Shown: positions 4,804 to 24,174 of the stretch, piece after piece | How positions within the stretch are numbered: the stretch's first letter is position 1 | Layout of the letters: each line of letters opens with the position of its first letter | IMG/VR virus record: IMGVR_UViG_3300035696_000001 | Origin: a virus | Length of the DNA: 64,000 nt | Strand: one strand, 5' to 3' | Made by a program: the position numbers and the translations under genes | Notes under the pieces: model-generated | Seen by the model: the letters and a program-made list of their open reading frames with translations, nothing else | What the model was told of the DNA's origin: nothing | Databases searched by the model: none

Positions 4804-4808
4804 TTCAT

Positions 4809-5489: not shown

Positions 5490-5492
5490 GGT

Positions 5493-6161: not shown

Positions 6162-6162
6162 G

Positions 6163-7143: not shown

Positions 7144-8012
7144 TGGCTGGTTTCCCGGATTTTGTCTACGAGTTCCACAGCGTCCAAAAGAGGGGTCTTG
7201 CAGCCGTACCGACGCCCCAATTCCTGGAGGACGTGCAGGTCTCTTATCAAGTGCCCGCCCGAAAGCCCCCAACCGGGGTTCACGTACGACTTTCCCCCCA
7301 CTCTGCTATCCGCTTTGGTGGCCCGAGCTACGTCCATCTCGTCGGCACCCACCTTTTTACATAGGTTTGCTATCTCGTTGGCGAAGCTGATCTGCGTCGC
7401 CAGCATGGTGTTGTGGGCGTGCTTGGCCATCTCAGCGGATCGCAGGCCCATTTGCAGAACGGGACGACCCAACGGCCGGTACAGGCTGACGACGCGCTCC
7501 AAGACTGCGGGGTCGTCCGCCCCTATGATAATCCGGTCTGCGTACAGAAAATTGGACACCGATTGGCCGGGCCGCAAAAGCTCTGGAACGTAAGCCACCA
7601 TTCCGCTTGTCAAACTCTCTGTCGTGCCCACGGGCACCTGAGAAGTTACGCACAGGATGCTGCCTGCGGATCGCAGTTCTTCTATCTTGGAGGCTGTGAC
7701 TAATGTGGATTCCAGCAGCAGCCCCTTCTCGTTAAACGGTAGGTCAATCGAAAGAAACACAAAGTCAGCCTCAGAGACGGCCTCGTTGTCTGTGGTGAAT
7801 CGAAGGCGGCGGAGAAGCAAGTTGTTGCGAAGCAGGGTCTCCAACCCCGGCTCGGGGATAGCGCCGGAATAATGCCCCGAATTCAACGCAGCAACGCAAC
7901 CGGCATCTCCGTCAATGGCCACGACCTGATAGCCTATCTCAGAGAAGCAAGCCGCTTGAACCACGCCCTGATGCTGCAAGCCTACGATGCAAATTTTGGG
8001 GGCGTCGCTCAT
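7140..8012 (-). CDS. UDP-glucose/GDP-mannose dehydrogenase-family protein, C-terminally truncated
   Basis: N-terminal NAD domain and central domain (RSAEMAKHAHNTMLATQISFANEIANLCKKVGAD, GWGLSGGHL). Only 290 aa, so the C-terminal UDP-binding domain is absent. Confidence 0.55.
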   Translation of the reverse strand: MSDAPKICIVGLQHQGVVQAACFSEIGYQVVAIDGDAGCVAALNSGHYSGAIPEPGLETLLRNNLLLRRLRFTTDNEAVSEADFVFLSIDLPFNEKGLLLESTLVTASKIEELRSAGSILCVTSQVPVGTTESLTSGMVAYVPELLRPGQSVSNFLYADRIIIGADDPAVLERVVSLYRPLGRPVLQMGLRSAEMAKHAHNTMLATQISFANEIANLCKKVGADEMDVARATKADSRVGGKSYVNPGWGLSGGHLIRDLHVLQELGRRYGCKTPLLDAVELVDKIRETSQ

Positions 8013-8725
8013 AGTTTGTACCCAGACTCCTGTGCGTCGCGGTAAAACATCCGCACGGTCTCAAGGGAGTATTCGTCGAGGTCTTTGCCCACAAGCGGGA
8101 GCTTTTTCAGGATGTCGGTCGTCGCCGTGATGATGTGGCATCCGACCGCGTCGGCTTGGAATACGTTCAGGAGTTCTCGCGGGGACGCCCAAAGGAGTTC
8201 GGCGTTGGGCGCGACGGAGTTGATGCGTCGCACCGCCTCCGCCATCTCTGGCACGGGGTCGCGCCCGGTGTCTGCGATGCGCCCCGCGAAAACGGAGATG
8301 TAGGCTGGAGCGCCGCCCGTCAGTGCGTCGCAGCACTGATCGACCTGCTCCAAGGTCATGAGAGCGGTCACGTTGACCTTGATGCCGTCGTGGGACAACT
8401 TGTCTACCAAACCGTAGGATTCGACGCCACGAGTATCGGTAACGGGGATTTTGACATAGACATTGCCTCCCCATGAAGCGATCTTGAGCGCCTGTGCTTG
8501 CATCGAGGCGTAATCGTCCGCGAGTACTTCGAAAGAGACGGGACGATCCGGCACGGATTCCAGTAGGTCTTTCGCGAAGGCTTCGTAATCCTTGATGCCA
8601 GCCTTGCGCATCAAGGTAGGATTTGTCGTGAAACCTTTAATGACGGGGTTCTTGTAAAGCTCCAGAATCGTAGCCTTGTCGGCACCGTCGCCGAAGATTT
8701 TCACTTTCAAATCGGTTACGTTCAC
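8009..8725 (-). CDS. tal: Transaldolase / fructose-6-phosphate aldolase family
   Basis: GFTTNPTL signature and ISVFAGRI. Start assigned to the GTG at 8725, in a GTGA overlap with the upstream stop. The ORF-track 5' extension is Arg-rich junk. Confidence 0.75.
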   Translation of the reverse strand: MNVTDLKVKIFGDGADKATILELYKNPVIKGFTTNPTLMRKAGIKDYEAFAKDLLESVPDRPVSFEVLADDYASMQAQALKIASWGGNVYVKIPVTDTRGVESYGLVDKLSHDGIKVNVTALMTLEQVDQCCDALTGGAPAYISVFAGRIADTGRDPVPEMAEAVRRINSVAPNAELLWASPRELLNVFQADAVGCHIITATTDILKKLPLVGKDLDEYSLETVRMFYRDAQESGYKL

Positions 8726-9825
8726 GGCTTGTCTCCCCGCAGAATCCAGCCCACAGCCTCTCTGAGGGATAGTACCGTGGCATCCGGCGTCGTTTCTGGG
8801 GTTTCGTTGCTGGATTCGATGAACACCGTTTTGCAGCCCGCTGCTTTGCCAGCAATGACATCTCGCCAATAGTCGCCGACCATGTAGCTGGAACCAAGGT
8901 CGATATTGAACGCCTCGGCAGCGAGCGCAAGCATGCCCGGCTTCGGCTTCCGGCAGCCGCAACCATCCTCATCGGAATGGTAGCAAACGTAAATGCGGTC
9001 TATGGGGAGTTCGGCAAGTAGCCTCTCGTTCACAGCTTCGACGAGGCTCCTTTTCACGAGACCTCGACCCACGTCGGGTTGATTCGTGACAACGATAAGC
9101 CTGTAGCCTGCTTCCTTGAGGTTGGCGAGGAGGGCCGCTGCTCCGGGAACGATTCTCAACTCCTCGACGGACTTGGGCGGAAACCGGTCCTCGGTCAGGG
9201 TGCCGTCTCGGTCTAAGAATACCGCCCGCTGGGGAAGCATGGACTCCCACTTGGTTTGTGCTTGCTTCAGAAGGGGATGGGAAACGAGGAGATGCCAAAC
9301 CACGGCCTGGAACGCCTCCGAGTGGGGCGTCACGCGGTCCGGGTTCGCCGTGGGGATTACGACGCATGCGTCCGCGACCTTGGCTGTGTACCCGCCGTCC
9401 CGCCCCACGATGCCCACCACGCGGCTCCCGACGCTTCTGGCGTAGTCTATGGCGGACACCAAGTTGGGGCTGACGTTCCTTTCCGCATCGCCTCCGCCCA
9501 CGGATAGAATCAAAAGCGTGTCCGTGGCTTTCAGGCGGCTGCCCCTGAGCCAAGCCGCGAAGACAGTCGCCCACCCTTCGTCGTTGGTTCTGGCTGTCAG
9601 TTCCGCGACGTTGTCGGTGGGGGCGTAGGCTTCGATCCCGGCTATCTTGCGGAAGTCGTTGACAGCGTGGGAAGCGTTGGCGGCGCTGCCCCCCACGCCC
9701 AAAACAAAGAGCCGACCGTTTTTGCGTGTGTCGGCGAGAATCTCAGCGCTGCGCTCTATCGCATCGAGGTCCAGCGCGGCGGCAATCTGCTGCACTTCCT
9801 CAAGGAAGAGTCTCGAAAAACTCAT
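8722..9825 (-). CDS. gmhA-gmhB: Bifunctional sedoheptulose-7-P isomerase (GmhA, SIS) / D,D-heptose-1,7-bisphosphate phosphatase (GmhB, HAD) fusion
   Basis: N-terminal SIS domain LFVLGVGGSAANASH. C-terminal HAD domain with FLDRDGTLTED and VVTNQ. Confidence 0.75.
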   Translation of the reverse strand: MSFSRLFLEEVQQIAAALDLDAIERSAEILADTRKNGRLFVLGVGGSAANASHAVNDFRKIAGIEAYAPTDNVAELTARTNDEGWATVFAAWLRGSRLKATDTLLILSVGGGDAERNVSPNLVSAIDYARSVGSRVVGIVGRDGGYTAKVADACVVIPTANPDRVTPHSEAFQAVVWHLLVSHPLLKQAQTKWESMLPQRAVFLDRDGTLTEDRFPPKSVEELRIVPGAAALLANLKEAGYRLIVVTNQPDVGRGLVKRSLVEAVNERLLAELPIDRIYVCYHSDEDGCGCRKPKPGMLALAAEAFNIDLGSSYMVGDYWRDVIAGKAAGCKTVFIESSNETPETTPDATVLSLREAVGWILRGDKP

Positions 9826-10802
9826 GAATGCACCATGATTGACGTCCCTACGAAGTCGAAACGGATGCGGACTTCGCGCAAACCGGCTCCAGACAATGCT
9901 TTCCGAAGTCGAGCCTTGTCCTCGGCGTAGAGCATCAAGAATCCCCCGCCTCCTGCCCCGACAAGCTTGCCGCCGAGAGCGCCGTTGTCCAACGCTAGCT
10001 GGTAGAGTTTGTCAATATGGGGGTTCGACATGCCCTCGGAACGCGCCCTCTTATGCAACCAGTGCTCGTGCATGAGGGCGGCGAAAGCACGCAGGTCGCC
10101 TCCCACGAGCGCATCCCGGCTCTGGAGACCAAGCTGTTTGGTGTGGTGCATGTTGTCGAGCATGGCGGCGTCGCTTTGCTTCGATTTGATGTCTTGGTCT
10201 GCAAGGATGCTCGACGCCGAGCGTGCATAGCCCGTGAAGAAAAGAAGCAGATTGTCTTCCAGGTTCGCCAGCGCTTCGCTGTTAATCGGCAACGGGCAGA
10301 AGCTCACGCTTCCGTTCCGGTTGAAGTCAAAGCAGGTCACCCCGCCTATCGCCGCGATGTACTGGTCTTGCTTGCCGCAGTGCTGTCCCAAAATGTCGTG
10401 TTCGATGTGGAACGCCTCCTCCGCGAGGTCTTGGCGCGTGATGGTCTGGTTGTGAAAAAAGTGCAGGGCTTGGAGCAAGGCTGTGGTAAAGCTGCCCGAC
10501 GAGCCTAGCCCGGTGCTATGGGGGATGTCGGCTACGTTAGCTATGTCAATAGAGTTCTGGATGCCCGTGAGCCTAAGAGCCTCGCGGATAACCGGGTGTT
10601 CGATCTGATCTACTGTGTCAACTTCCTCTTGCTTTGAGTATTTTAGGATGATCTTGGACTTGAAGGACTCGTTGACCGTGACATACACGTACCTGTTGAT
10701 CGCTGCGGAGAGGACAAAACCGCCGTGGTCTTGGTAGTAGGACGGCAGGTCAGTACCGCCCCCGCCCAAAGTGACCCTCAATGGTGATCGGACAATAATC
10801 AC
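9822..10802 (-). CDS. hddA: GHMP-family sugar kinase, heptose-7-phosphate kinase (HddA)-like
   Basis: MIIVRSPLRVTLGGGGTDLP N-terminus and PHSTGLGSSGSFTTALLQAL GHMP motif. Confidence 0.7.
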   Translation of the reverse strand: MIIVRSPLRVTLGGGGTDLPSYYQDHGGFVLSAAINRYVYVTVNESFKSKIILKYSKQEEVDTVDQIEHPVIREALRLTGIQNSIDIANVADIPHSTGLGSSGSFTTALLQALHFFHNQTITRQDLAEEAFHIEHDILGQHCGKQDQYIAAIGGVTCFDFNRNGSVSFCPLPINSEALANLEDNLLLFFTGYARSASSILADQDIKSKQSDAAMLDNMHHTKQLGLQSRDALVGGDLRAFAALMHEHWLHKRARSEGMSNPHIDKLYQLALDNGALGGKLVGAGGGGFLMLYAEDKARLRKALSGAGLREVRIRFDFVGTSIMVHS

Positions 10803-10848
10803 TCAATTTAAGCCTCAAATTAGGGCTTGAAAGTCTGCAACATAGGAT

Positions 10849-11658
10849 TTAGCCTTCGTAATCGTTGTTTGGCCGCCCGGACGGAATCAGACCTGCGTCT
10901 ATTGCTTTGGATGGGTCAAGCAGGGTGCTTTTTACGTCTTCTTTTCTGGCGGGTTTGTAGACGACCTCGACTCCGCGAAGCTTTCCGAAATGTTCCGCCA
11001 GGTCGCCGAGGCGGGTGGAATGGCCGTGGGCCAAATTGAACGTCCCGGTGTACTCCTCCCCGCTCGCCCGGATAAGCGCTTTACAGATCAGGTCAACGTG
11101 GATGAAGTCTCGAACTTGGTCGCCGCCGAACACCACGATTGGGTTGTCGTTCTTGAAATGGGTGAGCGCCAGCGTCTCGGCTCTTTCTGGAACGTGGCCG
11201 CCGAAGACGTTTCCGAATCTGGCGATGAAGTTGTTGGGGCACAGACGGTTGATGATGCCCTCGGCTATAAATTTGGATTGGGCGTAGGGGTTCAAGCACT
11301 TGTTCCAATGGGCATCCTCTTCCTTGGCGGGCGTCTCTCGCTCCCCGTACACCGCGCCGGAGGAGGAGAAAATGAACTTCTTCACCGTGTTGTTCTGGAA
11401 AAAGGGAATTAGGTTGAGGGCGTTCACTTGCATCATTTTGTCGGCCAGTTCGACGGAGCCGCCGAGGATGGACAGCGCCCCCAAGTGGAACACCACATCG
11501 AATGTGTGGCCCTGGAGGGTGCTGTAGTCTTGTCCTTCTTTGGCGTCGCACACGGAGATTAAGTCGTATGGAAAAGTCCTTGCGACCGCCTTCAGGAGGT
11601 GCGACCCTATGTAACCCGACGTACCTGTCATCAAAATGTGCATTTGAATCTCCTTCAT
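10849..11658 (-). CDS. NAD-dependent epimerase/dehydratase
   Basis: MTGTSGYIGSHL and YAQSKFIAE. Paralog of 2408..3160. Confidence 0.65.
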   Translation of the reverse strand: MKEIQMHILMTGTSGYIGSHLLKAVARTFPYDLISVCDAKEGQDYSTLQGHTFDVVFHLGALSILGGSVELADKMMQVNALNLIPFFQNNTVKKFIFSSSGAVYGERETPAKEEDAHWNKCLNPYAQSKFIAEGIINRLCPNNFIARFGNVFGGHVPERAETLALTHFKNDNPIVVFGGDQVRDFIHVDLICKALIRASGEEYTGTFNLAHGHSTRLGDLAEHFGKLRGVEVVYKPARKEDVKSTLLDPSKAIDAGLIPSGRPNNDYEG

Positions 11659-12431
11659 TTAACCCCGTATTTTTTCTTCAACTGCTCGTACAGGCTGTCT
11701 TCGGGGTAGTTTTTATTGGGGTTTAGCCCTAGATTGCCGTGTTGCCAATACGAGCAGCGAAGATGGATTGCGCGGGACTTTTCCGGGAAAGACCACGACT
11801 GCCCGCCGCTGACGAACCTCACATACTGCTTCCCGTCGAGGCAGCCTATGGCGTCGAAAACAGCCGAATCGCGATAGTAGTCTTGCAGACCCGCCTTTGG
11901 AACCCATTTTCGGAACAGCCCCGGTCCGATGCCCGCGTTTATGTTGCCTATGATTCTAGTGAGGTCGCACCCTTTTTGCGGGTTCCGGCTTTCGATCTCG
12001 TTGACTATGTTCTGGAGAAAAGGCGCTTCGGCTGGGGCTTTGAAAAGACACCCAGTCAAGTAAGCCGGGTCAAGGAGCGACGAGACACCACCGTCCGGGG
12101 ACTCGCAAAGAAGGACATAGGGTTCCGGGAAGTCGAAGGGCTTCAGGCAGACGATGTCCACATCGACATACCAGCCCCCCTTTTTGCAGATTAGATGAGA
12201 CCGGAAATAGTCGGAAAAGTGGTTTGGGCCGGTGAACCACGTATGAGCATCCTCGGGGACTACCTCGCTTGTGGCATGCACCACCGTGCCCTCGGGGATG
12301 CCCCGGCAGTCCGGGTGCGTGGTGTACAAATGGAACTCGTGCCCGTTGCTCAGAAAGGATCGGATCGAGAGCTTTTCGAGGTTCGTCAGTTCGACCCCAC
12401 ACCATACGCCGTTGATGATCTTGTTGTCCAT
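11655..12431 (-). CDS. GT32-like glycosyltransferase (DXD sugar-binding region)
   Basis: WCGVELTNLEKLSIRSFL..GHEFHLY and DVDIVCLKP DxD. ATG at 12431 is preferred over the TTG at 12464. Confidence 0.5.
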   Translation of the reverse strand: MDNKIINGVWCGVELTNLEKLSIRSFLSNGHEFHLYTTHPDCRGIPEGTVVHATSEVVPEDAHTWFTGPNHFSDYFRSHLICKKGGWYVDVDIVCLKPFDFPEPYVLLCESPDGGVSSLLDPAYLTGCLFKAPAEAPFLQNIVNEIESRNPQKGCDLTRIIGNINAGIGPGLFRKWVPKAGLQDYYRDSAVFDAIGCLDGKQYVRFVSGGQSWSFPEKSRAIHLRCSYWQHGNLGLNPNKNYPEDSLYEQLKKKYGVK

Positions 12432-12439
12432 TGAAACGA

Positions 12440-13084
12440 CTATTTTGCGCCTTTCTGCACCCAAGCGGAGTGGTCTGACAGGTTGTTGTAGATTGGTTGT
12501 TTACCTTGTTTGTGGAAAAACTCTAAGGCCGCTTTCTGGCATCCGGGCCAGAGGTAGAAATCGTCAAAATAGATAAAGCCGCCCGGTACGATAGCGTCAT
12601 AAAATTTTTCCAAGCAAACCCTTTCGGATTCGTACCAATCCGAATCAAGGCTTAGCATTGCGATTTGCGGGACTGCAACAGTCGGAAGGGTATCCTTAAA
12701 CCAACCCGCATGGATGTTGACCTTAGCCATATCTGCTCCGACTTTTTGGAGCACCTCCTTGACCGCGTCAACGCTGCCCTTACAACTACCGACGCAGCTT
12801 TCGGCAGTTACGCCGTTGGGCTGCGGAAGGTCTTCTTTGGTGGGTGTAGGTAGGCCCTCAAAAGAGTCAAATAACCAAACCTTTCTGTTAAACTTGGAAT
12901 TAGCTGCGAAGTGGGCTAAGACAGCGCCCAAGCCGCCGTTCCATACACCGCATTCGACCATATCTCCGGGGATGCCTTCTTCCTCTATTCGGCGTGCTAA
13001 AGGTATGTACTGGCGTACTTGGTCGCCGCAAGCCATAGTATAGGGCTGAACTATCTTTTCAAGTTCTTCGTTTGTTAACATCAC
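12440..13084 (-). CDS. TylF/MycF-family sugar O-methyltransferase
   Basis: ECGVWNGG, DSFEGLP and LSLDSDWYE motifs typical of macrocin-O-MTase-like enzymes. Confidence 0.65.
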   Translation of the reverse strand: MMLTNEELEKIVQPYTMACGDQVRQYIPLARRIEEEGIPGDMVECGVWNGGLGAVLAHFAANSKFNRKVWLFDSFEGLPTPTKEDLPQPNGVTAESCVGSCKGSVDAVKEVLQKVGADMAKVNIHAGWFKDTLPTVAVPQIAMLSLDSDWYESERVCLEKFYDAIVPGGFIYFDDFYLWPGCQKAALEFFHKQGKQPIYNNLSDHSAWVQKGAK

Positions 13085-14121
13085 GCGTTTCCCTTTTCAT
13101 CCAGTTTTGTTCTGTCCGCCAACTGCTGTTCCAGCCTGGCGACTTCCTTGCGCAGGATGCCGATTTCTTCTTCTGATTTGTGGAGTCTTTCCTGATGGAG
13201 GGCGTTCTCAGCTTTTAGTTGCTGCTCCACCTCGGCGACTCTCTCACGCAGGCTGCCGTTATCAGCTTTCAATTTTTCGCACTCAGTAACCAGAAATTGC
13301 ATATATTTTTCCTCGCAGTATCGTGCCTGTATCGTGCACTGCCACCTTGACCATTGGTGAAAGATGAAGTACGGTACGATGTCCGTTGCTTCGTTGTCCT
13401 CTATTTCATTATTCATCATCAATCCGTTCGTCAGTTTTCCGTGCGCCTCTACGAACGGGGCAAACACGAACTTATCTTTATATCGGAAGATTTTTGTTCT
13501 GTCCTTGTACTTGTCCTGGCGGATCAGGACGTTCAACCCCTGTTGGTCGCCGAGGCAGTCATCGTGTGTTGGGTGAAACTTTTCCCTTCGCTTGTCCCTC
13601 AAGCACATCGTGTAAATGTCCCGGCACAGGTCGGCGGCAACGTCCGGCAAGCCTGCGATGACCCCAGCGTTGAGGATTTCCTGTCCCATGAGGGACTCGT
13701 GAACTTCGTGGCCAAAGGCGTCGCAAAGCACCTTGTCATTCTCCTCGTACCGTCCGCTGTAGAGGTGCTCTTCGGAGCCAATAGCCAGGCTGTAGCCGCC
13801 GAGGCTGCCCCGTATCCACTCCATTGGGTTGCGCTGGAACACGACATCCTTGGTGTCGATCAGCAAAACGTAGCGAAGAGCAGTAGCTTCCTTGGCTAAG
13901 ATTTCGGAGATGATGCGGAACCGCGCCATGGCGGCTTCCTCCCCTTTGGAATCGACATCGCAGGTCTCGATGTCGTACGCCTCCAGTTTTTTGTCCTTGC
14001 AGTCAGTGATGAGAATACAGCGCCCGTGGTACCCCGACCACCGCAAAGAAACGACAAAAAACTCCAGTTCCTTCCAACCGTAGCCCGCAGCCATGCCGAT
14101 AATGAGATCATTCTCATTCAT
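13081..14121 (-). CDS. Putative glycosyltransferase-like protein with C-terminal coiled coil
   Basis: N-terminal nucleotide-diphospho-sugar-transferase-like region (LLIDTKDVVF). Last ~80 aa are a heptad-rich coiled coil (LKADNGSLRERVAEVEQQLKAEN..). Function uncertain. Confidence 0.35.
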   Translation of the reverse strand: MNENDLIIGMAAGYGWKELEFFVVSLRWSGYHGRCILITDCKDKKLEAYDIETCDVDSKGEEAAMARFRIISEILAKEATALRYVLLIDTKDVVFQRNPMEWIRGSLGGYSLAIGSEEHLYSGRYEENDKVLCDAFGHEVHESLMGQEILNAGVIAGLPDVAADLCRDIYTMCLRDKRREKFHPTHDDCLGDQQGLNVLIRQDKYKDRTKIFRYKDKFVFAPFVEAHGKLTNGLMMNNEIEDNEATDIVPYFIFHQWSRWQCTIQARYCEEKYMQFLVTECEKLKADNGSLRERVAEVEQQLKAENALHQERLHKSEEEIGILRKEVARLEQQLADRTKLDEKGNA

Positions 14122-14831
14122 TGATGCGCCTTGGGGTTGTCCTTCTCGATATGTATGATTTTGGGGACAAAATCAGGCGTATGCCAGATATGGGGCGCTC
14201 TCCAATAGATACGGTTGGGCGGAAACGCATAGGCCGGTGAAAGAGCTATCGCCGGGGGGTTGTGTTCCAAGTAGCAGTTCCAGTGAGACTCATCTTGCCA
14301 TTTCGCCACGATGCCCCTGCCGTCGTCAATGTCGATGTTGCGGGCGAGAATCTTGCATACCGCCAAATACTCGGGGGCCGAGCCGCCTTGGAAGCAGCCT
14401 TGGTAGTAAAAACGGTGGCTTTGGAGAAACGCTGTCGATTCTCGTCTAGTTTCGACATTCGCCCCCTCGCCGCTGGGGATGTAGTTCCGCTCCACACCGG
14501 GGTGAAGCACCGCTGTAATGCCTTTAGCACAGAATTCTTCTTCGAGAATGGGGGCCACGACCCTCATGTCGATGTCGATGTGCATCAGGTAGTCATAACC
14601 GGCAAGCCAGTCCGCTTGGCTGGATATGGCATGGTAGCGCATCATGCCAGCACGCGGCCACCCCAAATGCGGGTACTCCACGACGCGGGCATCATACGGA
14701 GCTTTGCTGTCCGTGAACAGGACTGGGTCGCAGGGCGGGAAGAACTTCCGCAGCGACTCAATGAGGGGCGGAACGAAGCTCAGGAATTCTTGCTTTCCCG
14801 TCGCGATCAGGATTACGGCAATCTTGCTCAT
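14118..14831 (-). CDS. GT6-family glycosyltransferase (ABO blood-group alpha-1,3-Gal/GalNAc-transferase-like)
   Basis: Start at the internal Met MSKIAVIL, in an ATGA overlap. Aligns with the catalytic region of human GTA/GTB: YLMHIDIDM (DxD), RRESTAFLQSHRFYYQGCFQGG, KWQDESHWNCYLE and ALSPAYAFP. Confidence 0.8.
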   Translation of the reverse strand: MSKIAVILIATGKQEFLSFVPPLIESLRKFFPPCDPVLFTDSKAPYDARVVEYPHLGWPRAGMMRYHAISSQADWLAGYDYLMHIDIDMRVVAPILEEEFCAKGITAVLHPGVERNYIPSGEGANVETRRESTAFLQSHRFYYQGCFQGGSAPEYLAVCKILARNIDIDDGRGIVAKWQDESHWNCYLEHNPPAIALSPAYAFPPNRIYWRAPHIWHTPDFVPKIIHIEKDNPKAHQ

Positions 14832-15508
14832 AAATCGTAGCCGCCCCGGTGCAAAAGTAAGACACCGTGAAAAAACCTGTGCTGCCATCCGGGCACATCG
14901 AAAGGATAGCCCTGATCCACGAGATAGTGACTTACTTCGCACGGACAACCCAACTCGTGGCACGGGTACCCCCGGAACGAAGTCACAGAGCAGCGGTCAC
15001 AGTCAGTTGCCAGCCGCTTCACGTCGTCAACGACGACGAAAGAGTCTGGGGCAAATTTTGCGATGGCGGCAAGTTCAAGCGGAACCTGGAACTCGCATGT
15101 CGTATGGGCATTGTCTCCGAAACAATGAGCGTCGAGCCAGAATAGGACACGCTTGCCGCTCGGAGGCGATGCCCATACCAGTGTCGGCAGGAAGTTTGGC
15201 AGCCAAGCGCCGCTGGAGCCGTGAACGCAGTGAACATTGGGCGCATTTTTGAACCTCTCTGTTGCCTTCTGGTACAAATCGTCACTCAGTTCGATAGTCC
15301 AGATTTCATCAAAATGGTTTTGGCAGGCAGCGGGCATGTTTCCCTTGTACGTTCCCGTTTCGACGAGGACGTTCAGGTCAAAGTGCTCGCCCAGCGCGAT
15401 GAGCAAGTCTCTGCGCCAGTTGTCGGTGGGATGCACCATGTCCGTGCCGCCGTAGCTCTTCCAAAACAACAAATCATTCGTAGTTGCAGGATCGCGAAAG
15501 GTGAACAT
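14828..15508 (-). CDS. SAM-dependent O-methyltransferase (CmcI/Methyltransf_24-like)
   Basis: Start at the internal Met MFTFRD. VLVETGTYKGN and FWLDAHC motifs. Confidence 0.45.
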   Translation of the reverse strand: MFTFRDPATTNDLLFWKSYGGTDMVHPTDNWRRDLLIALGEHFDLNVLVETGTYKGNMPAACQNHFDEIWTIELSDDLYQKATERFKNAPNVHCVHGSSGAWLPNFLPTLVWASPPSGKRVLFWLDAHCFGDNAHTTCEFQVPLELAAIAKFAPDSFVVVDDVKRLATDCDRCSVTSFRGYPCHELGCPCEVSHYLVDQGYPFDVPGWQHRFFHGVLLLHRGGYDL

Positions 15509-16122
15509 TAAAGAACCCTCACGCTGACCGCCGCTTCCCCGCTGTCCCCGATTGTGTGCAGGGCAAGGTATTCGTAGGGGCGTCCTTGGATGAATTCCTG
15601 GAACGCCTTGAACTCGTGCTCCCGCCATCCGGGGTAATCCATGTACTCGTCGAACATGATGACCGTCCCCGGCACAATCTTGGGGCCGAAGTTGTCGAAC
15701 ACCGTTTTGGTGGACGAATAAATGTCGCAGTCGATGTGTATAAAAGAGATCGGACCGGGATGCGACCTTGCGAAATCGGGAAGCGTGTCCGCAAACAGGC
15801 CCTTTACGATCTCTACATTTTCTCGAACTTTGGGCACGTCGCATTTGTTGCGCCCCTTTGGGGCGTTGCCCGGCCAATCCTCTGGCAGCCCTTCAAAGGA
15901 GTCGAAGCCGTAAATCTTGGCGGGCGCTACCAAGTCCGCGAGGCAGTTCAAACTACCGCCTGTCGCCACGCCCAACTCCATGATCAGACCCTCTATGGAG
16001 CGGGCGTCAGTGGAATACCTGTAAAAGTAGTGGCGACCGCTGGGGCGGTAAGAAGAATCGTCTGTGGGAAAGAGAAAGCGTGCGACTGTTTTCCCAGAGA
16101 AATAAAGATTCGAGTCGCGCAT
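15508..16122 (-). CDS. TylF-family sugar O-methyltransferase
   Basis: ELGVATGGS, FDSFEGLPE and IHIDCDIYSST. Confidence 0.6.
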   Translation of the reverse strand: MRDSNLYFSGKTVARFLFPTDDSSYRPSGRHYFYRYSTDARSIEGLIMELGVATGGSLNCLADLVAPAKIYGFDSFEGLPEDWPGNAPKGRNKCDVPKVRENVEIVKGLFADTLPDFARSHPGPISFIHIDCDIYSSTKTVFDNFGPKIVPGTVIMFDEYMDYPGWREHEFKAFQEFIQGRPYEYLALHTIGDSGEAAVSVRVL

Positions 16123-16123
16123 T

Positions 16124-16960
16124 TTATAGTTTTATAGCCGGGACTGTACCCGGCTCCCCCATTTTCACCCACCGCTCGGGAACAACGTCGTCGTAGCGGA
16201 CGGGCGCGTTGCCGAACCATTTCTTGGGTGCGATCACGATTCGGTCGGCCTGTGTGTCACCGAGCCAAGCGCCCCACCAGCCAAACGAGCTATTAGGAAA
16301 GATGGCGTGGCGGCACAGGCTCATCAACCACAAGTCCTCGTGCTCGTGCCCCGGACTGTCGCCGAAGCCCATCTTGTTGTGGTCTACGATTGTGCAGTCG
16401 GCAAACCTCTCCCGGCACCCGTCTGGGTCGTCCGAAAAGACGAAGAATTTCGCATCGGCAATACGTTCGCGTACGTATTGCATCGCCTCTGCATAATAGT
16501 CCCACGTCATGTTGCCGTGGAACGCCGCCTGCCCCGCGCCGAGGTAGTCGGTTCGCCGCACATGGATGAACGCGCTCTGCGGCGCTGCCGCGATTGCGTC
16601 AGCAACCCGCTTGGTCTGCTCGCCGACCGGGTTTCTGAGCGTAAAATCCCTTCGGATCAGGTCGGGTTCTGGCTCAAAGTATTTTTCCGTCTGCCAGCAG
16701 CCCCGGAAATTTGTCCCGTTCGGTACTTTGTAAACTTGCGGATCGAAAATCAGGTGCGATTCGTCGAAAAAAGGCCCTCCGCCTCCCCCGAACCGTACGT
16801 CGCGGACATTGAAGACGTCAAGCCCGTAGGCGCGGTGGCATCCGGGCCCCAAACCTACCTTGTAGAACAAAACATCCTCCCTTCGCACCCGCGAAACGCA
16901 GCGACCGAAAGCGTACTGGAACATCTGGTTGCCCAGGCCTCCATTGAGCCTAACCAACAT
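16124..16960 (-). CDS. GT11 alpha-1,2-fucosyltransferase (FutC/WbsJ/FUT2-like)
   Basis: Canonical motif I GGLGNQMFQYAF. HVRRTDY, FVFSDD and SSFGWWGAWL motifs match H. pylori FutC and E. coli WbnK. Confidence 0.85.
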   Translation of the reverse strand: MLVRLNGGLGNQMFQYAFGRCVSRVRREDVLFYKVGLGPGCHRAYGLDVFNVRDVRFGGGGGPFFDESHLIFDPQVYKVPNGTNFRGCWQTEKYFEPEPDLIRRDFTLRNPVGEQTKRVADAIAAAPQSAFIHVRRTDYLGAGQAAFHGNMTWDYYAEAMQYVRERIADAKFFVFSDDPDGCRERFADCTIVDHNKMGFGDSPGHEHEDLWLMSLCRHAIFPNSSFGWWGAWLGDTQADRIVIAPKKWFGNAPVRYDDVVPERWVKMGEPGTVPAIKL

Positions 16961-17585
16961 TACCCATCTCCCTGTGCTTCTTGTACATCCACGACACGTT
17001 GAAAGTTCGTCCTACAGTAGCGGAACAAAAGTGCGATGTTATCTCGTCGTTGTCACCGTACCGGATGTCGTCTTTCGCGGTGAGCCGACCTTCTGCGACC
17101 GCCGCCCCCACTATTTGGCCGATCCATTTGTCCTCGGCCCACGTATCAGGTTCCAGGCGCACGACCACCTCCATGGCACGCCGCGACATCCAATAGCCTG
17201 CCCCGCCCGATGCCCACGCATACCCGCCCTCCCTGACCCCCGGCACGCCTATCGGCCCGTTGAACCTGCCGATTTGGTCATATCCCTGCGGGTCGTAGGC
17301 AGCTAGCTTGGACATTACTGCGTAGGTGTCCGTGTCCGCTAAAAAAGCGTGGTCGTAGTCGTGCGCCAGTACCCACCCGAATATGGCGCGGGTCTTGTGC
17401 GGCAAGTCCAGATAGGCGTCGCCGCAATCCAACGGCTCCTCGTCCGGCGCAAGTTCGCCCCCGCCCCGCCCAACAAAAAACCTGTAATCAACTGGGCAGT
17501 TCTTCAGCCACGTGTCACGTACGGCTTGGTTGAATCCGTTGCGGCAATCGCGATAGCAGCTTTTTACGGCAATCAGTCTTTTCAC
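16950..17585 (-). CDS. Fringe-like (GT31-type) glycosyltransferase, paralog 1
   Basis: LIAVKSCYRD..VRDTW and DTDTYA DxD. ATGA overlap with the upstream paralog. Confidence 0.55.
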   Translation of the reverse strand: MKRLIAVKSCYRDCRNGFNQAVRDTWLKNCPVDYRFFVGRGGGELAPDEEPLDCGDAYLDLPHKTRAIFGWVLAHDYDHAFLADTDTYAVMSKLAAYDPQGYDQIGRFNGPIGVPGVREGGYAWASGGAGYWMSRRAMEVVVRLEPDTWAEDKWIGQIVGAAVAEGRLTAKDDIRYGDNDEITSHFCSATVGRTFNVSWMYKKHREMGNVG

Positions 17586-18223
17586 AGTATGCCTTTCGCC
17601 TTTTCGTGCACGGCATACAGGTTTGCCCTGTCACGTAGGTTCGTCAAAGAATTCCGTTCGTGGTTGTGACAGGTGATGACGTCGTTGTCGGGCTGGGGGC
17701 CTACCATTGTTCCCCTGTCAGTGCCGATCCTGTACCGGGGATCATGGAACGGTAGGATTCCGGCTTGCCTGAGCACGTAGCGCACCCACCAATCCTCAGC
17801 GCCGGAGCAAGCCGCAATTTCCCCCCTCGCCAAGAGCGCCTCCATCGCCCTGCGGCTGAGCCAATATCCCGTTCCGCCAAAGACGCTGTCGTCCCCCTGT
17901 ACGAATCCCGAATAGTCGTGCCTCTCAAAGCCCGAGGCGAGAAGGCGCGGGACGTGGACGTAGGTGTCCGTATCGCACCGGAACAGGTTGTCGTAGCCGT
18001 TCGCGAGCGCCCACGAAATTGACCCGAGTATTTTCAGACGAAGCTCAGAGCCGCCGCCATCGGGCACGTCCAAGAAGGTCTCGTCTGCTTCCGCATCCGG
18101 CTCCTTGGGGACTCCCAAAAAGAACCTGGTGTCCGCAGCCGGGGCGCTCAGCCACGTGTCACGGATTTGCGCATGGCACCAGCGGTCGCGATGGCAACTC
18201 TCTATGGCGATGAGGGGTTTCAC
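17582..18223 (-). CDS. Fringe-like glycosyltransferase, paralog 2
   Basis: GTG start in a GTGA overlap. VKPLIAIESCHRD..IRDTW and CDTDTYV. Confidence 0.55.
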   Translation of the reverse strand: MKPLIAIESCHRDRWCHAQIRDTWLSAPAADTRFFLGVPKEPDAEADETFLDVPDGGGSELRLKILGSISWALANGYDNLFRCDTDTYVHVPRLLASGFERHDYSGFVQGDDSVFGGTGYWLSRRAMEALLARGEIAACSGAEDWWVRYVLRQAGILPFHDPRYRIGTDRGTMVGPQPDNDVITCHNHERNSLTNLRDRANLYAVHEKAKGIL

Positions 18224-18930
18224 AGCGCACCCGCCGAGAGTTGGTGCGCCCTGTACATCATGCTCGGGTTGTAGGCACCCGTGCCGCAGCCGAGGTGTAC
18301 GCTGATCCCGTCGTATCCGTAGAGTTGGAGACGGTCGCCCTTGAACAGGTAACGGGGGTCGTGGTAGCCGTGCATCCCCAAGGGAAGCAGGATATTTGGA
18401 ATCCAAAGGTCTTCGGCTGGGTTGCCCTTGTTGTCGAGCCGCCTCCAGTCTAAGGGTGCGGCAACGATGGCTTCCATTGCGCGTTTGCTAGTCCAATAGC
18501 CGCATCCCCCCGAACAATAGGGGTAGACCCCTCGGGGATCGCAGTACTCGCTCAGGGTTTGCCCGTCCGCTGGCAGATAGCCTTCCTGCGGATGCAGGGG
18601 AAAGTGGCCCACGTAGTCACTCCGGTCAAAGCCGGAGACGAGCAGACGTCTCGGCGACAGGTAGGTGTCGCGGTCAGCCTTGAACACCCATTCATATTCG
18701 TGCTCAAGCGCCCATTTCCGTATGGCTTGCGACTTTTCCGGCAGGTGGGGGTAGTCATCCGGCACGTCAAGACGCTCCTCGTCGGGGAGCAGCGTCCGGC
18801 TGCCTTGCCCCACGAATATCTTGTAGTCCAGCCCCGGCACCATGTGCTGCATCCACGTGCGCCGCATGGCGTCGTGGCAGCCGTTTGCCGCGTCGCGCTC
18901 GCAACTCATCACGCCTATGAGAATTTTCAC
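18220..18930 (-). CDS. Fringe-like glycosyltransferase, paralog 3
   Basis: GTG start in a GTGA overlap. VKILIGVMSCERD..MRRTW and ADRDTYL. Confidence 0.55.
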   Translation of the reverse strand: MKILIGVMSCERDAANGCHDAMRRTWMQHMVPGLDYKIFVGQGSRTLLPDEERLDVPDDYPHLPEKSQAIRKWALEHEYEWVFKADRDTYLSPRRLLVSGFDRSDYVGHFPLHPQEGYLPADGQTLSEYCDPRGVYPYCSGGCGYWTSKRAMEAIVAAPLDWRRLDNKGNPAEDLWIPNILLPLGMHGYHDPRYLFKGDRLQLYGYDGISVHLGCGTGAYNPSMMYRAHQLSAGAL

Positions 18931-19676
18931 GCCCCCACCCAATCCTTGATGCCCTCTTTCCTCAGCATAATCGTGTGCCCTGCTGCGAAAGCCCGCCTGC
19001 GGAACCGCCCGTAGCGGGGGTCCTGCACGTCCGCCCCGGTGCCCAGCTTGAACGTGTCCACGCTCCAGCCGGGCAGCCACACCGTGACCCTGCCCGCCTT
19101 CTTCATGTGCCAGAAGAACTGCCCGTGCTCCCCGCCTATGGGGCGGACCTCCTCGTCCCACGGCACCCCGCGCAGCGTCGATGCGCGTGCGAGGAACGCG
19201 TTCACCACGAGGTCGCACCGCTGGTAGGGCGACCCGTCCGGCACCAGGCGGATTTCGCGGATCACATTCTTTTCGGCGTCAAAAACAAGATTTGATTCGT
19301 ACGGGTTGCCGTCCACGCGCCCGCCCACCAAGTCGATTTCGGGGTGCGTGTCGAGGATGTCGGCGGCTTTGGTCAAGCTTTCTTTGAACCCTTTGGTCGC
19401 GAAGTCGAAGTCGTCAGCGCCGCAGTACCAGTAAGGCGTCTCGCACAGGAGCACGCCACGGTTGCGCTTCGCCGTCAAGCCCGAGTCGAACGGCAACCAA
19501 GCCCACTGGGTGTTGAGCATGGGCGCACGCGGAGTCAAGTCCATGCCGCTCCCGCTGTCGTCCACGACGATCACTTGGCATTCCGGCAAGCTCATGCGGA
19601 CGCTGTCGAGGCACGCCCGCAGATAGCCCGGACGTAAGAAGGAGGATATAAACACTGAAATTTCATTAAGTGGCAT
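18927..19676 (-). CDS. GT2-family glycosyltransferase
   Basis: ISVFISSF, VVDDSGSG and GLTAKRNRG GT-A motifs. Confidence 0.65.
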   Translation of the reverse strand: MPLNEISVFISSFLRPGYLRACLDSVRMSLPECQVIVVDDSGSGMDLTPRAPMLNTQWAWLPFDSGLTAKRNRGVLLCETPYWYCGADDFDFATKGFKESLTKAADILDTHPEIDLVGGRVDGNPYESNLVFDAEKNVIREIRLVPDGSPYQRCDLVVNAFLARASTLRGVPWDEEVRPIGGEHGQFFWHMKKAGRVTVWLPGWSVDTFKLGTGADVQDPRYGRFRRRAFAAGHTIMLRKEGIKDWVGA

Positions 19677-19809
19677 GTGCCCTCACTTTCTTTTCGCGGT
19701 AACGGCGTGCTTTCTCTGCTCCAGTCAACGGTCTCTCACCTATGCGACGATAAGTACGGTGTCCTCCTATCCTCGCGGAGCCACATGTACGTGTAGTAGA
19801 CCTTGTCCA

Positions 19810-20481
19810 TCACAAATCTCCCCCCACCAACTGCTGGATGGTCTCGAACGGAACCGGCTTGTATTCGTTGCTGGTAAAGTTTTTTCGGCAGGCGTTCGTG
19901 TCGTGTATGCTGGCAATGACGAGCTTGGGGTCGAACAAATCCAATTTCGCCTCGGCAGGCAGTTTCCTCTGCAAATTATAGTCGGCACCCGCAACGATAT
20001 GGTCGAACTTGTTCTGCTCCCAGACGGATTTCCGAAACGCAATAGCCCCCAGCCAGCCGATGGACTTCGGGCTGGTGTACTGCCATGCCTTCTGCATGTC
20101 CTTCCGGTAGTAGTACAACGTGGACGTGCCCGTCATCTGCACCTGCTGCCGGTCGATCATGGGCTGTATCTGGCGTGCAAGGCGGTCTGTTGAATAGACG
20201 TCGTCATCGTCCCAAACGAGGAGAAAAGCCCCAGACGCCAGTTCGATGCATTGGTTGAGTTTGATCCCATGGTTGTAAACGTTCGATTGCCATGTGTACT
20301 TGATCCTCGGGTCATCCGGCAGCAGGGGCTTGACCGGCTCGGTCGAATCGTCAAGTATCAAAAGCTCCACGACCCAGTCAGCGGGGTACTGCTGCGCCTG
20401 AAAGCAGCGGATCGCACGCGGGATGAACCCACAGCGGTTGCGCGTGGGCATTAACGCTGATACGATTAAGGGGCTAGGCAT
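19810..20481 (-). CDS. GT2-family glycosyltransferase
   Basis: VSALMPTRNR and LVWDDDDV. First gene of the island, 133-bp gap to the next gene. Confidence 0.65.
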   Translation of the reverse strand: MPSPLIVSALMPTRNRCGFIPRAIRCFQAQQYPADWVVELLILDDSTEPVKPLLPDDPRIKYTWQSNVYNHGIKLNQCIELASGAFLLVWDDDDVYSTDRLARQIQPMIDRQQVQMTGTSTLYYYRKDMQKAWQYTSPKSIGWLGAIAFRKSVWEQNKFDHIVAGADYNLQRKLPAEAKLDLFDPKLVIASIHDTNACRKNFTSNEYKPVPFETIQQLVGGDL

Positions 20482-20667
20482 GGCATAACTCGCAGTTTGG
20501 GTTGGCCACCAACCCCACGGGCTTGCCGTCCACGAAGACTTCGTATGTTCTGCCGGACACCTCGGGCATTCGAATTTCCCCCTACTTAAAATACGAAAAA
20601 CCAGTAGATTGCCGGGCGTCGGGCTGGTATGCTAGGGATATTATGGTAAGGATCAAGGAGCCTGCCA
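20482..20667. promoter_or_regulatory. Divergent intergenic control region with inverted repeat CTACT-N16-AGTAG (20582..20607)
   Basis: Strand-switch point between the minus-strand glycan island and the plus-strand block. Lower GC; TATTAT and TATGCT -10-like hexamers. Carries the SD and ATG of 20668. Confidence 0.3.
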
Positions 20668-22749: not shown

Positions 22750-24174
22750 ATGGCATCACTCAACGCTGCAACCCGTACCGCAAAGACCCCGCTCCGCACC
22801 GCCGAGGGCGGCAGGGCGGTCGGCATCGGCAAGGTCGCGCAGCTTCAGCGCCTGCTGAACGCCTGCCTCCTGTGGGAGGACAACTTCTACTCGGACGGCA
22901 AGAGCGTCGCCGACCTCATGCGCGAGCTTGTGCGCGAAGTCCCAGCCGAGAAGGTCGCGGAGCTTGCGATCAAGGCCCGCGAGGAGCAGAAGCTCCGCCA
23001 TGCCCCGCTGCTCATCGTCTACGAGATGACGCTCGCCTCGAAGGCTCACCGCGAGCTTGTCGGGGAGACGCTCACCCGCGTGATCCAGCGCCCGGACGAG
23101 ATCACCGAGTTCGTCGCCATCTACTACAAGCTCGGCGGCGGGAAGCGCCCGCTCTCGAAGCAGGTCAAGAAGGGCCTTGCCGCTGCCTTCAACAAGTTCA
23201 ACGAGTATGCGCTCGCAAAGTACAACCGCGACAAGGACGTCAAGCTCGCGGACGTGCTGGCGCTCGTCCACGCCAAGCCGAAGGACAGGGAGCAGGGCCT
23301 CCTCTTCGCGAAGCTTGCGAACAAGGACCGCCTGCCGAAGAAGACCAAGTTCGCGCAGTTCCCGGTGGCCGACACCTACCGCTCGCTCGCGAAGAACTTC
23401 AAGGGTCTGGAGACCCCGGACACTTGGGAGGTCGCGCTCTCTGGCGGCGCGGACAAGAAGGAGGCCTTCGAGCGCCTCATCCGCGAGGACAAGCTCGGCG
23501 GCCTCGCGATGATCCGCAACCTGCGCAACATGCAGGAGGCGGGCGTCTCCGACGCGGTCATCAAGCAGGGCCTTGCGCAGATGAACGCCGAGCGCGTGCT
23601 CCCGTTCCGCTTCATCGCGGCGGCGAAGTACGCCCCGAAGTTCGAGGCGCACCTTGAGGAGGCGATGTTCAAGTGCCTTGAGGGGCACCCGAAGCTGCCG
23701 GGCAAGACCGTGCTGCTCGTGGACGTTTCCGGCTCGATGGATCAGCATGTTTCCTCGAAGTCCGACCTGATGCGCGTGGACGCTGCCGTCGCCCTTGCGA
23801 TGCTCCTCCGCGAGGTCGGCGAGGACGTGGTCGTGTATTCGTTCTCGGAACGGGAAGTCCTCGTCCCGACCCGGCGCGGGTTCGCCCTCGCCGAGGCGAT
23901 CAAGGGGTCGCAGCCCCATTCGGGCACGTACCTCGGCCGCTCCGTGACCGCCGTTGCCCGCGCCGAGGGCGACGCCGACCGCGTCATCGCGATCTCGGAC
24001 GAGCAGGCGCACGACAACGTCTCGAACCCATTCCGCAAGACCGAGTCGAAGGCGTACATGATAAACGTGGCAAGCGAAGCTCACGGAGTCGGATACCGTA
24101 ATGGTTGGAATCACATCGATGGATGGTCTGAGGCTGTGGTAGACTACGTAGTTGCTGAAGAGGCAACAAAATAG
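22750..24174 (+). CDS. rsr: Ro60/Rsr ortholog (TROVE domain + vWA/MIDAS)
   Basis: N-terminal TROVE-like region (LLWEDNFYSDGKSVAD..HAPLLIVYEM). C-terminal vWA domain with the MIDAS motif VLLVDVSGSMD. The overlapping ORFs 22743..23657 and 22756..24114(-) are frame artefacts. Confidence 0.8.
   Translation: MASLNAATRTAKTPLRTAEGGRAVGIGKVAQLQRLLNACLLWEDNFYSDGKSVADLMRELVREVPAEKVAELAIKAREEQKLRHAPLLIVYEMTLASKAHRELVGETLTRVIQRPDEITEFVAIYYKLGGGKRPLSKQVKKGLAAAFNKFNEYALAKYNRDKDVKLADVLALVHAKPKDREQGLLFAKLANKDRLPKKTKFAQFPVADTYRSLAKNFKGLETPDTWEVALSGGADKKEAFERLIREDKLGGLAMIRNLRNMQEAGVSDAVIKQGLAQMNAERVLPFRFIAAAKYAPKFEAHLEEAMFKCLEGHPKLPGKTVLLVDVSGSMDQHVSSKSDLMRVDAAVALAMLLREVGEDVVVYSFSEREVLVPTRRGFALAEAIKGSQPHSGTYLGRSVTAVARAEGDADRVIAISDEQAHDNVSNPFRKTESKAYMINVASEAHGVGYRNGWNHIDGWSEAVVDYVVAEEATK

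Follow-up and report, generated by a model that had tools for sequence, protein, structure and literature searches.

A GT11-GT6 glycosyltransferase pair in the sugar island of a probable large tailed phage

In Escherichia coli O86, the GT11 enzyme WbnK and the GT6 enzyme WbnI together produce a glycan of H-to-A/B topology (PMC4506291). Within the GT6 family, clade 1 comprises minimal enzymes with a DXD motif, namely the GT6 of cyanophage PSSM-2, homologues from marine metagenomes, and PaGT6 of Parachlamydia acanthamoebae, which transfers N-acetylgalactosamine (GalNAc) onto the H trisaccharide or 2'-fucosyllactose, needs Mn or Mg, and is inactive on N-acetyllactosamine (PMC3516806). The PSSM-2 enzyme has already been discussed in the literature (PMC3516806, PMC3961637), and a role in envelope modification has been hypothesised for cyanophage fucosyltransferases and "lipopolysaccharide" (LPS) clusters (PMC9602691, PMC12801897). 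Here, a GT11-GT6 gene pair is described from IMG/VR virus record IMGVR_UViG_3300035696_000001, in a stretch of 64,000 nucleotides (the window, by which the whole stretch analysed is meant) where the two genes lie in an island of sugar-related genes. An initial annotation had read the pair as a viral ABO-like mimicry module; the comparisons below confirm the enzyme families and favour their cooperation, and point to a phage glycan module instead.

Both open reading frames (ORFs) are on the minus strand at the positions first given for them (Table 1), and every motif that had been quoted is present, a result far above chance. The GT11 protein carries GGLGNQMFQYAF (residues 7-18, window 16907..16942), an N-terminal motif of the GGLGNQMFQYA type, together with HVRRTDY (residues 133-139, 16544..16564), which is the GDP-binding HxRRxD(Y/F) motif, FVFSDD (residues 173-178) and SFGWWGAWL (residues 225-233), while the GT6 protein carries DID (residues 86-88, 14568..14576), FYYQGCFQGG (residues 141-150, 14382..14411), KWQDESHWNCYL (residues 177-188, 14268..14303) and LSPAYAF (residues 197-203). 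Profile searches placed both proteins inside the families proposed for them, with Glyco_transf_11 (PF01531) matching the former at 73.5 bits (cut-off 23.9; E 2.3e-20; best stretch residues 86-252) and Glyco_transf_6 (PF03414) the latter at 61.2 bits (cut-off 25; E 9.4e-17). Among PDB sequences, the GT6 ORF retrieved BoGT6a of Bacteroides ovatus first (1.1e-20), followed by many human ABO transferases at about 3e-16 (2.9e-16), and PDB GT6 chains overall ranged from 1e-20 to 1e-14; the human match spans residues 56-212 of the query, in agreement with the earlier proposal of an alignment with the catalytic half of human GTA/GTB. The GT11 protein gave no match to PDB sequences at E<=0.01. Its homologues at E<=1e-10 number 4224, and those listed all belong to PF01531. 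As supporting evidence only, it aligns end to end with a sequence that we take to be that of Helicobacter pylori FutC (28% identity, E 4e-33), with both motifs aligned. The fifth position of HVRRTDY is Thr in 64 and Gly in 38 of the 120 nearest GT11 homologues; Thr at this position was considered as a sign of a changed donor and rejected, because it is the commonest residue in these homologues and is present in P-SSM2, which bears GMD.

The GT6 protein can be read residue by residue against characterised family members, for which the roles have been assigned (PMC3516806, PMC3961637). Its start was placed at the ATG at 14831 and not at the head of a longer GTG ORF reaching 14963, in line with gene callers on independent contigs and with all homologues. 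D86-I-D88 aligns with D211-V-D213 of GTA and N95-A-N97 of BoGT6a, and metal dependence is predicted because the DXD is kept where the metal-independent BoGT6a has N-A-N. E181 (14289..14291), in a WQDES stretch aligned to WHDES, corresponds to the catalytic Glu (GTA E303, BoGT6a E192), and K230 is the C-terminal Lys equivalent to K359 of a3GT and K231 of BoGT6a. Seven residues (D86, D88, H110, W178, D180, E181 and K230) are invariant in an alignment of 21 phage and environmental GT6 sequences. At the acceptor sites A1 and A2 the protein has H110 and G112, as in the fucose-requiring GTA and BoGT6a, whereas a3GT has Gln and Trp there. The donor tetrad is Q144-G-C-F147 (14391..14402), in which the Q-G-C signature is common to the window and cyanophage GT6s, with A-G-G-F in other relatives. 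By size, DXD motif and similarity, the protein belongs with the minimal DXD clade. Scanning IMG/VR for peptide patterns of the GT6 protein found no relative.

The idea that the two enzymes act in sequence is strengthened by the strand and neighbourhood that their genes share elsewhere. A tblastn search of GenBank phage records located GT6 in 72 and GT11 in 103, almost all of them cyanomyoviruses. The two genes are on the same strand in all ten phage lineages mapped, with GT11 upstream and within 1.5 kb in nine of the ten. In B23, DSL-LC03, Bellamy, S-PRM1, S-CAM9, SynMITS9220M01 and DSL-LC02, GT11 directly adjoins the start of GT6 or overlaps it. The distance in ACG-2014f is 0.8 kb, with GT11 again upstream; the annotated methyltransferase that separates the two there has no detectable homology to the methyltransferases of the window, so that the likeness is one of arrangement and not of ancestry. 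P-SSM2 has GT11 1.5 kb upstream of GT6, two ORFs between them, and GMD further upstream. The tenth arrangement is that of LR745206, a phage of 634,780 bp, where GT11 shares the strand of GT6 at a distance of 11 kb downstream and a Fringe-like gene flanks GT6; the ORFs that follow GT6 and GT11 there are methyltransferase-like as judged by reading their sequences.

Similar observations were made on metagenomic sequences. GT11 is 0-2.4 kb away and on the same strand in all four of the nearest metagenomic GT6 contigs, upstream in three and downstream in one (the P0009 contig), and the neighbouring genes are of the TylF, Galactosyl_T-like and Gly_transf_sug types. The related phage-like contig L015 has in common with the window a GDP-mannose 3,5-epimerase (GME; 16370..17322, 66% identical), GT11 (52%), a GT32-like gene directly downstream of GT6 (45%), and GT31-like genes; one of the four nearest contigs, sharing GME, GT32-like and GT31-like genes with the window, has a GH108 endolysin. 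A scan of 1.84 billion representatives found 1810 GT6-like clusters, and in the nearest of these GT6 is naturally joined to Gly_transf_sug, Galactosyl_T, GT2 and Methyltransf_24 domains. Gly_transf_sug (GT32-like) is fused to GT6 in P0152, P0153, P0155 and P0156, and Galactosyl_T (GT31-like) in P0154, P0156 and P0157, while P0005 is a GT6 homologue of 407 aa whose extra C-terminal ~180 residues seem methyltransferase-like when their sequence is read. The fusion partners are families that stand as separate genes in the window, which supports a single assembly line, and comparison gives good support both to the coupling of GT11 with GT6 and to the two working together with partners of the GT31-like, GT32-like and methyltransferase kinds. 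The GT6 fusions among P0005 and P0152-P0159, all from public metagenomes, reach 963 aa and four catalytic domains, and multi-domain GT6 glycan synthases of this kind are apparently undescribed so far. The human-faecal phage contigs MT836157.1 and MT838506.1 also carry distant homologues, 25-28% identical to the window GT6, and these would be more pertinent to blood-group mimicry than the window is.

The pair is embedded in an island of at least 20 kb (window 1046..20481), made up of about 25 genes on the minus strand whose stops and starts overlap. GME is the only GDP-sugar enzyme encoded there. Its alignment to solved enzymes spans residues 3-322 and conserves the motifs SSAC, YGxEK and EKxPAAxCRK, which we take to hold the catalytic Cys, Tyr/Lys and Lys of the Arabidopsis enzyme. 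The gene was also considered as a GDP-fucose synthase, its top NCBIfam name, and this was rejected, as Fcl scores 136.5 bits against a cut-off of 500 and GME 326 bits; automated naming would label it GDP-fucose synthase or a generic epimerase. With GME as the only GDP-sugar enzyme and neither GMD nor Fcl in the window, the phage's own GDP-sugar would be GDP-L-galactose (6-hydroxy-fucose) and not GDP-fucose, and fucose would need the host or genes beyond the window. GME, which forms GDP-L-galactose or GDP-L-gulose, is the likely donor supply for GT11. The transaldolase, GmhA-GmhB and HddA-like kinase genes are proposed to constitute a heptose-1-phosphate pathway yielding heptose phosphate; no heptose-1-phosphate nucleotidyltransferase was recognisable within the window.

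The GT6 and GT11 genes are separated by 1,292 bp (14832..16123), in keeping with the ~1.3-kb spacing first reported, and the gap holds two genes. The initial annotation had called both O-methyltransferases. Their methyltransferase nature stood, through Pfam matches for the gene next to GT11 and through predicted fold only for the gene next to GT6, while the "O-" depends on their acting on sugar hydroxyls, as we infer that they do. The former is 32% identical to its paralogue, the TylF methyltransferase on the other side of GT6. The latter had no match in Pfam, NCBIfam or PHROG, and its five homologues found share the motifs ETGTxxG, TIELS and LFWLDxH. An AlphaFold (AF2) model built from this small alignment (pLDDT 64.7, pTM 0.70) has a well-predicted Rossmann core, and a Foldseek search of PDB with the model gave 831 matches at E<=1e-3, the top ones all class I S-adenosylmethionine (SAM) methyltransferases, including O-methyltransferases of the COMT/CCoAOMT type; assignment to the class I SAM methyltransferases is therefore supported by the model. 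Together with the TylF paralogue, there are three methyltransferases that probably modify the glycan product.

The carrier has a GC content of about 57%. Megablast of positions 12000..20500 against 50,697 phage records found no match, and PHROG scans of 20 proteins gave few matches. A peptide deformylase, a PHROG virion protein, and homing endonucleases of the HNH and GIY-YIG types indicate, as far as sequence matches go, a large tailed phage of a bacterium. Origin from a giant eukaryotic virus was considered and rejected on the peptide deformylase, the PHROG virion and homing-endonuclease matches, and the operon-like overlapping genes. Identical copies of GT6, the methyltransferase-fold protein and GT11 are known from several environmental contigs, of which the longest on record measures 894,233 bp and would be exceptionally large if it is a single phage genome; for a 315-aa protein encoded at 59399..60346, the contigs on record do not exceed 196 kb. 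At the edge of the window, positions 1..1044 (minus strand) hold the 5' part of the gene for a Ser/Thr/Val/Gly-rich repeat protein of 1794 aa, found whole in contig L011 (12801..18185), which matches phrog_1645, "virion structural protein" (1.7e-11), and consists of 12.3% Ser and 11.3% Thr (23.6% together). In L011 (12287..20294, which corresponds to window 1..1558 and sequence beyond its start) the genes that follow the island on the same strand encode a 170-aa T/S-rich protein, the 1794-aa protein and a 520-aa protein, the last two sharing a repeat of ~35 residues. All of them are taken as fibre-like virion proteins and are candidates for glycan acceptors or receptor-binding proteins.

In the reading that we tentatively prefer, and to which we would give slightly under an even chance, the pair contributes to a glycan assembly line, encoded by the phage and operating in the cytoplasm, whose product is destined for an envelope glycan of the host. 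The sequences establish the enzyme families, the conservation of catalytic residues and that of the GT11/GT6 neighbourhood; the order of action, the sugars, the site of methylation and the target are those that we infer. Island enzymes would supply the activated sugars, with GME providing GDP-L-galactose, the transaldolase, GmhA-GmhB and HddA-like kinase providing heptose phosphate, and the GalE-like epimerases and nucleotide-sugar dehydrogenase working on UDP-sugars. Soluble GT2 and four GT31-like enzymes would build a hetero-oligosaccharide at the cytoplasmic face, a GT31-like enzyme giving it a terminal beta-galactose (Gal), to which GT11 would add an alpha-1,2-linked sugar of the L-fucose type from a GDP donor, either L-fucose (from host GDP-Fuc) or L-galactose (from the phage GME). 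The GT6, metal-dependent through its DXD, would then attach a hexose to this Gal in alpha-1,3 linkage, giving a branched trisaccharide of H-to-A/B topology; such sequential branching is plausible in view of the recurrent GT11/GT6 pairing. Up to three SAM methyltransferases would then O-methylate the trisaccharide, and the product would plausibly be A/B-like in architecture, not necessarily in antigenicity. As a lipid-linked envelope glycan of the infected bacterium (of O-antigen, lipooligosaccharide (LOS) or capsule type), exported by the host, it would alter the surface that phages recognise. The envelope is favoured as destination because of the precedent of lipid-linked acceptors and the hypothesis in the literature for the cyanophage clusters.

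Several observations weigh against this reading. The Q-G-C-F donor tetrad equals that of no characterised GT6 (L-G-G-F in GTA, M-G-A-F in GTB, A-G-G-L in BoGT6a, H-A-A-I in a3GT), so that Gal, GalNAc and glucose are all possible donors and the choice among them is not readable from sequence. Position A7 is H227, three residues before K230, and is neither small (GTA and BoGT6a) nor Trp (a3GT), and the best NCBIfam model for the protein is "family 6 glucosyltransferase" at 108.7, below its cut-off of 250. Neither a GMD nor an Fcl equivalog was found within the window. Pfam scans and a check for transmembrane (TM) segments found no priming phosphoglycosyltransferase, flippase, polymerase or ligase in the island, and an envelope destination would therefore lean wholly on host functions. 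Furthermore, the Ser/Thr-rich fibre-like virion genes directly after the island fit glycosylation of the virion about equally, and the literature searched held no enzyme assay of any phage GT6 or GT11.

The same chemistry could indeed serve another target, with the island glycosylating the phage's own Ser/Thr-rich fibre-like virion proteins in the cytoplasm before assembly, a possibility to be taken seriously though we lean against it. All 25 proteins of the island are soluble, lacking any TM-like segment; genes for lipid-carrier priming, flipping or polymerising are missing from the island; and the genes for the 170-aa, 1794-aa (phrog_1645) and 520-aa proteins come next on the same strand. 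Virion glycosylation has precedents in the capsid and tail of mycobacteriophage, the capsid glycan of chloroviruses, and the fibril glycans of Mimivirus, with their methylated sugars. However, the characterised prokaryotic GT6 and GT11 enzymes all use lipid-linked O-antigen or LOS units (WbnK/WbnI, PMC4506291; BoGT6a, PMC3516806), no protein-O-glycosyltransferase was recognised, and a Ser/Thr-rich composition is ordinary in phage fibres; because fibre genes often adjoin receptor-modifying genes too, adjacency does not discriminate between the two targets. A wider joint proposal strikes us as doubtful, namely that GT11-GT6 makes up the conserved centre of a glycan peculiar to phages, branched with L-Gal or Fuc, O-methylated and possibly containing heptose, which would be built with GDP-L-galactose instead of GDP-fucose on the phage's own Ser/Thr-rich fibres in phages ranging from cyanomyoviruses to those of >600 kb, and would amount to a virion glycocalyx with a blood-group-like branch topology. 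It is also unlikely that the two enzymes are uncoupled, with GT6 acting on a non-fucosylated acceptor and/or with UDP-glucose, GT11 acting at another position or on another glycan, and no H-to-A/B branch being made. The Q-G-C-F tetrad and the A7 His, unlike those of GTA, GTB and BoGT6a, would suit uncoupled enzymes, as would the glucosyltransferase name of the NCBIfam model, the 11 kb between the genes in LR745206, and contig L016, which has a fragmented GT11 beside an intact GT6. Against this stand the common strand and neighbourhood in 10 of 10 phage lineages and the four nearest contigs, the A1 His and A2 Gly of the fucosyl-acceptor type, and PaGT6, the sole assayed member of the minimal DXD clade, which needs a fucosylated acceptor (PMC3516806).

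The A/B-like epitope proposed in the initial annotation is not established, given the Q-G-C-F tetrad, a GME in place of GMD and Fcl, and three interleaved methyltransferases, and mimicry of vertebrate A/B antigens, whether to evade immunity or to interact with a host, is very improbable. The enzymes do belong to the same families as the human H and A/B pathway and E. coli O86, and GT6 matches occur at 25-28% identity in two human-faecal phage contigs. Yet the carrier appears to be a phage of bacteria (peptide deformylase, PHROG matches), its closest relatives are environmental contigs and marine or freshwater cyanophages, where vertebrate immunity is not involved, the GT6 donor residues differ from those of GTA and GTB, and the island supplies GDP-L-Gal instead of GDP-Fuc, with methyltransferases that probably change the epitope; the presence of the same module in marine cyanophages leaves the mimicry claim unsupported. 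Scarcely credible, finally, is modification of phage DNA with sugars (hypermodified bases) against restriction, for which the window offers two dCMP-deaminase-domain proteins, ThyX, a nucleoside 2-deoxyribosyltransferase-like protein and a NUDIX protein, and for which DNA glycosylation has been suggested as a possible role of cyanophage glycosyltransferases (PMC12801897). These nucleotide-metabolism genes are >30 kb off and on the opposite strand, GT6 and GT11 are glycan-elongating families that use sugar acceptors, and about ten glycosyltransferases, a heptose pathway and sugar O-methyltransferases exceed any known DNA-sugar system.

Table 1. Features of the window discussed in the text, the GT11-GT6 pair first.
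Feature	Positions	Strand	Details
GT11 glycosyltransferase (alpha-1,2-fucosyltransferase family)	16124..16960	-	278 aa; Pfam PF01531
GT6 glycosyltransferase, minimal catalytic domain, DXD type	14118..14831	-	237 aa; Pfam PF03414
TylF / Methyltransf_24-type SAM methyltransferase	15508..16122	-	204 aa; Pfam PF05711 9.1e-14, PF13578 1e-13
Class I SAM-methyltransferase-fold protein	14828..15508	-	226 aa; motifs ETGTYKG...TIELS...LFWLDAH
346-aa protein, no family match	13081..14121	-	C-terminal coiled coil ~85 aa; stop/start overlap neighbours
TylF (macrocin O-methyltransferase family) methyltransferase	12440..13084	-	Pfam PF05711 4.6e-43, 147.8 bits
GT32-like glycosyltransferase (Gly_transf_sug, DXD)	11655..12464	-	Pfam PF04488 29 bits, cut-off 23
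Three tandem GT31/Fringe-like paralogues	16950..17585, 17582..18223, 18220..18930	-	mutual BLASTP 1e-20 to 1e-35
Fourth GT31-like copy	3218..3844	-	Pfam Galactosyl_T PF01762 27.4 bits, cut-off 23
GT2-type glycosyltransferase	19810..20481	-	Pfam PF00535 51.9 bits; upstream end of island
GT2-type glycosyltransferase	18927..19676	-	Pfam PF00535 21.4 bits, below cut-off; upstream end of island
GDP-mannose 3,5-epimerase (GME)	3829..4803	-	326 bits; PDB 8sg0 1.5e-96; Arabidopsis GME 2c59 3.6e-95
Transaldolase	8009..8725	-	TIGR02134 339.7 bits, cut-off 282
GmhA-GmhB fusion	8722..9825	-	SIS_2 and HAD/GmhB matches
HddA-like GHMP kinase	9822..10802	-	HddA 179.6 bits, sub-threshold
GalE-like SDR and paralogue	2408..3160, 10849..11658	-	
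phrog_3603 protein (function unknown in PHROG)	4809..5489	-	226 aa; 5e-35
SDR	5493..6161	-	
GFO/IDH/MocA oxidoreductase	6163..7143	-	
Nucleotide-sugar dehydrogenase	7140..8012	-	290 aa
HNH homing endonuclease	1551..2336	-	phrog_12434, 3.7e-10
RNA-repair/tRNA-maintenance set	22750..24174, 29817..30902, 32316..33434, 34992..36317, 62071..62979	+	
GT-C-type membrane glycosyltransferase	33619..34995	+	PMT_2 34.6 bits, cut-off 26.1; weak STT3

Among the remaining island genes, the 346-aa protein encoded immediately downstream of GT6 matched no family in Pfam, NCBIfam or PHROG and gave chance-level hits only in a PDB sequence search, and its single-sequence AF2 model (pLDDT 40) was unusable. The phrog_3603 protein likewise gave chance-level hits only against PDB sequences. 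For the tandem GT31-like genes, the Galactosyl_T match, obtained for 17582..18406, is weak at 18.1 bits. The nucleotide-sugar dehydrogenase has matches to the NAD-binding domain at its N-terminus and to the central domain, and none to the C-terminal UDP-binding domain; the next gene begins at its stop. The HNH homing endonuclease is inserted inside the island; it is also present in contigs L012 and L013 and missing from the otherwise collinear L011, a presence/absence polymorphism of a mobile endonuclease.

Also encoded elsewhere in the window are an SNF2 helicase, a peptide deformylase, deaminases and many ORFans. A set of plus-strand genes for RNA repair and tRNA maintenance consists of Ro60/TROVE-vWA, PNKP (kinase and phosphatase), an Rnl1-type RNA ligase, a CCA-adding enzyme and a Thg1-like tRNA-His guanylyltransferase; no tRNA genes were found in the 64-kb window. 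Between the RNA ligase and the CCA-adding enzyme lies a gene for a GT-C-type membrane glycosyltransferase, split by a single in-frame TGA at 34252..34254; the split could reflect a pseudogene, an error in the sequence or a gene made of two pieces. Recoding of this stop codon was considered and rejected, as TGA, the most frequent normal stop of the island, terminates 12 of 22 island genes. If functional, this would be the sole periplasm-facing glycosyltransferase of the window.

The initial annotation had also held that such a module would be notable in a virus. Novelty in this sense did not hold up, because P-SSM2 has GT11, two ORFs and GT6, annotated as such in GenBank, and the GT11-GT6 pair occurs in many known phages; the module of the window is a divergent, enlarged version of a known phage glycan module. 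What is new is comparative, namely the conserved GT11/GT6 neighbourhood across unrelated lineages, the GT6 fusions, and the replacement of a GDP-fucose pathway by GME; the unusual Q-G-C-F tetrad is a further useful specific of the window module. Should the proposed chemistry be correct, many large phages would make a branched sugar of the H-to-A/B type inside infected bacteria, with a bearing on the masking of phage receptors, superinfection exclusion or the surface chemistry of the virion. It would also provide small soluble enzymes for glycan synthesis, a metal-dependent GT6 and a GT11, possibly with new donor specificities (Q-G-C-F; GDP-L-galactose).

Compared with described systems, the pathways of E. 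coli O86 (WbnK and WbnI) and of humans (FUT1/FUT2 and ABO) use the same two CAZy families, whose members act in turn on one Gal to give Fuc-alpha1,2-(Gal/GalNAc-alpha1,3)-Gal. Unlike the window, which encodes GME only, both make GDP-L-fucose through GMD and Fcl; neither has interleaved methyltransferases, the O86 cluster includes Wzx and Wzy where the island has none, and the human enzymes are type II membrane proteins of the Golgi. BoGT6a (PDB 4AYJ/4AYL) shares with the window GT6 the acceptor His (A1) and Gly (A2), the Trp and Glu, and a Pro at the site of GTA D326, and differs in having N-A-N in place of DXD, metal independence, A-G-G-L (UDP-GalNAc), and a C-terminal membrane-binding region. 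The clade 1 enzymes are closer in form, at ~230 aa and lacking a membrane-binding domain, with D-X-D, catalytic Glu and C-terminal Lys; PaGT6 among them is a proven GalNAc transferase on H-type acceptors, whereas the window GT6 carries the Q-G-C-F tetrad. Viruses that glycosylate their own virions encode soluble glycosyltransferases, sugar-nucleotide enzymes and sugar methyltransferases near structural genes, and the systems of mycobacteriophage, chlorovirus and Mimivirus are not known to use a GT11-GT6 pair. The cyanomyovirus clusters for "LPS / cell-wall modification" (P-SSM2 PCMG_00269..00272, ACG-2014f gp226-229, B23, Bellamy, S-PRM1, S-CAM9 and DSL-LC02/03) resemble the window in having GT11 upstream of GT6 on one strand, amid nucleotide-sugar epimerase and glycosyltransferase genes, with two small ORFs between the pair in P-SSM2 as here, and a minimal, DXD-type GT6 bearing the Q-G-C donor signature. 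They differ in protein identity of only 28-34%, in AT-rich genomes against ~57% GC, and in the lack of DNA similarity. P-SSM2 has GMD where the window island has GME, and the island is the larger, with a heptose pathway, four GT31-like paralogues and two TylF-type methyltransferases.

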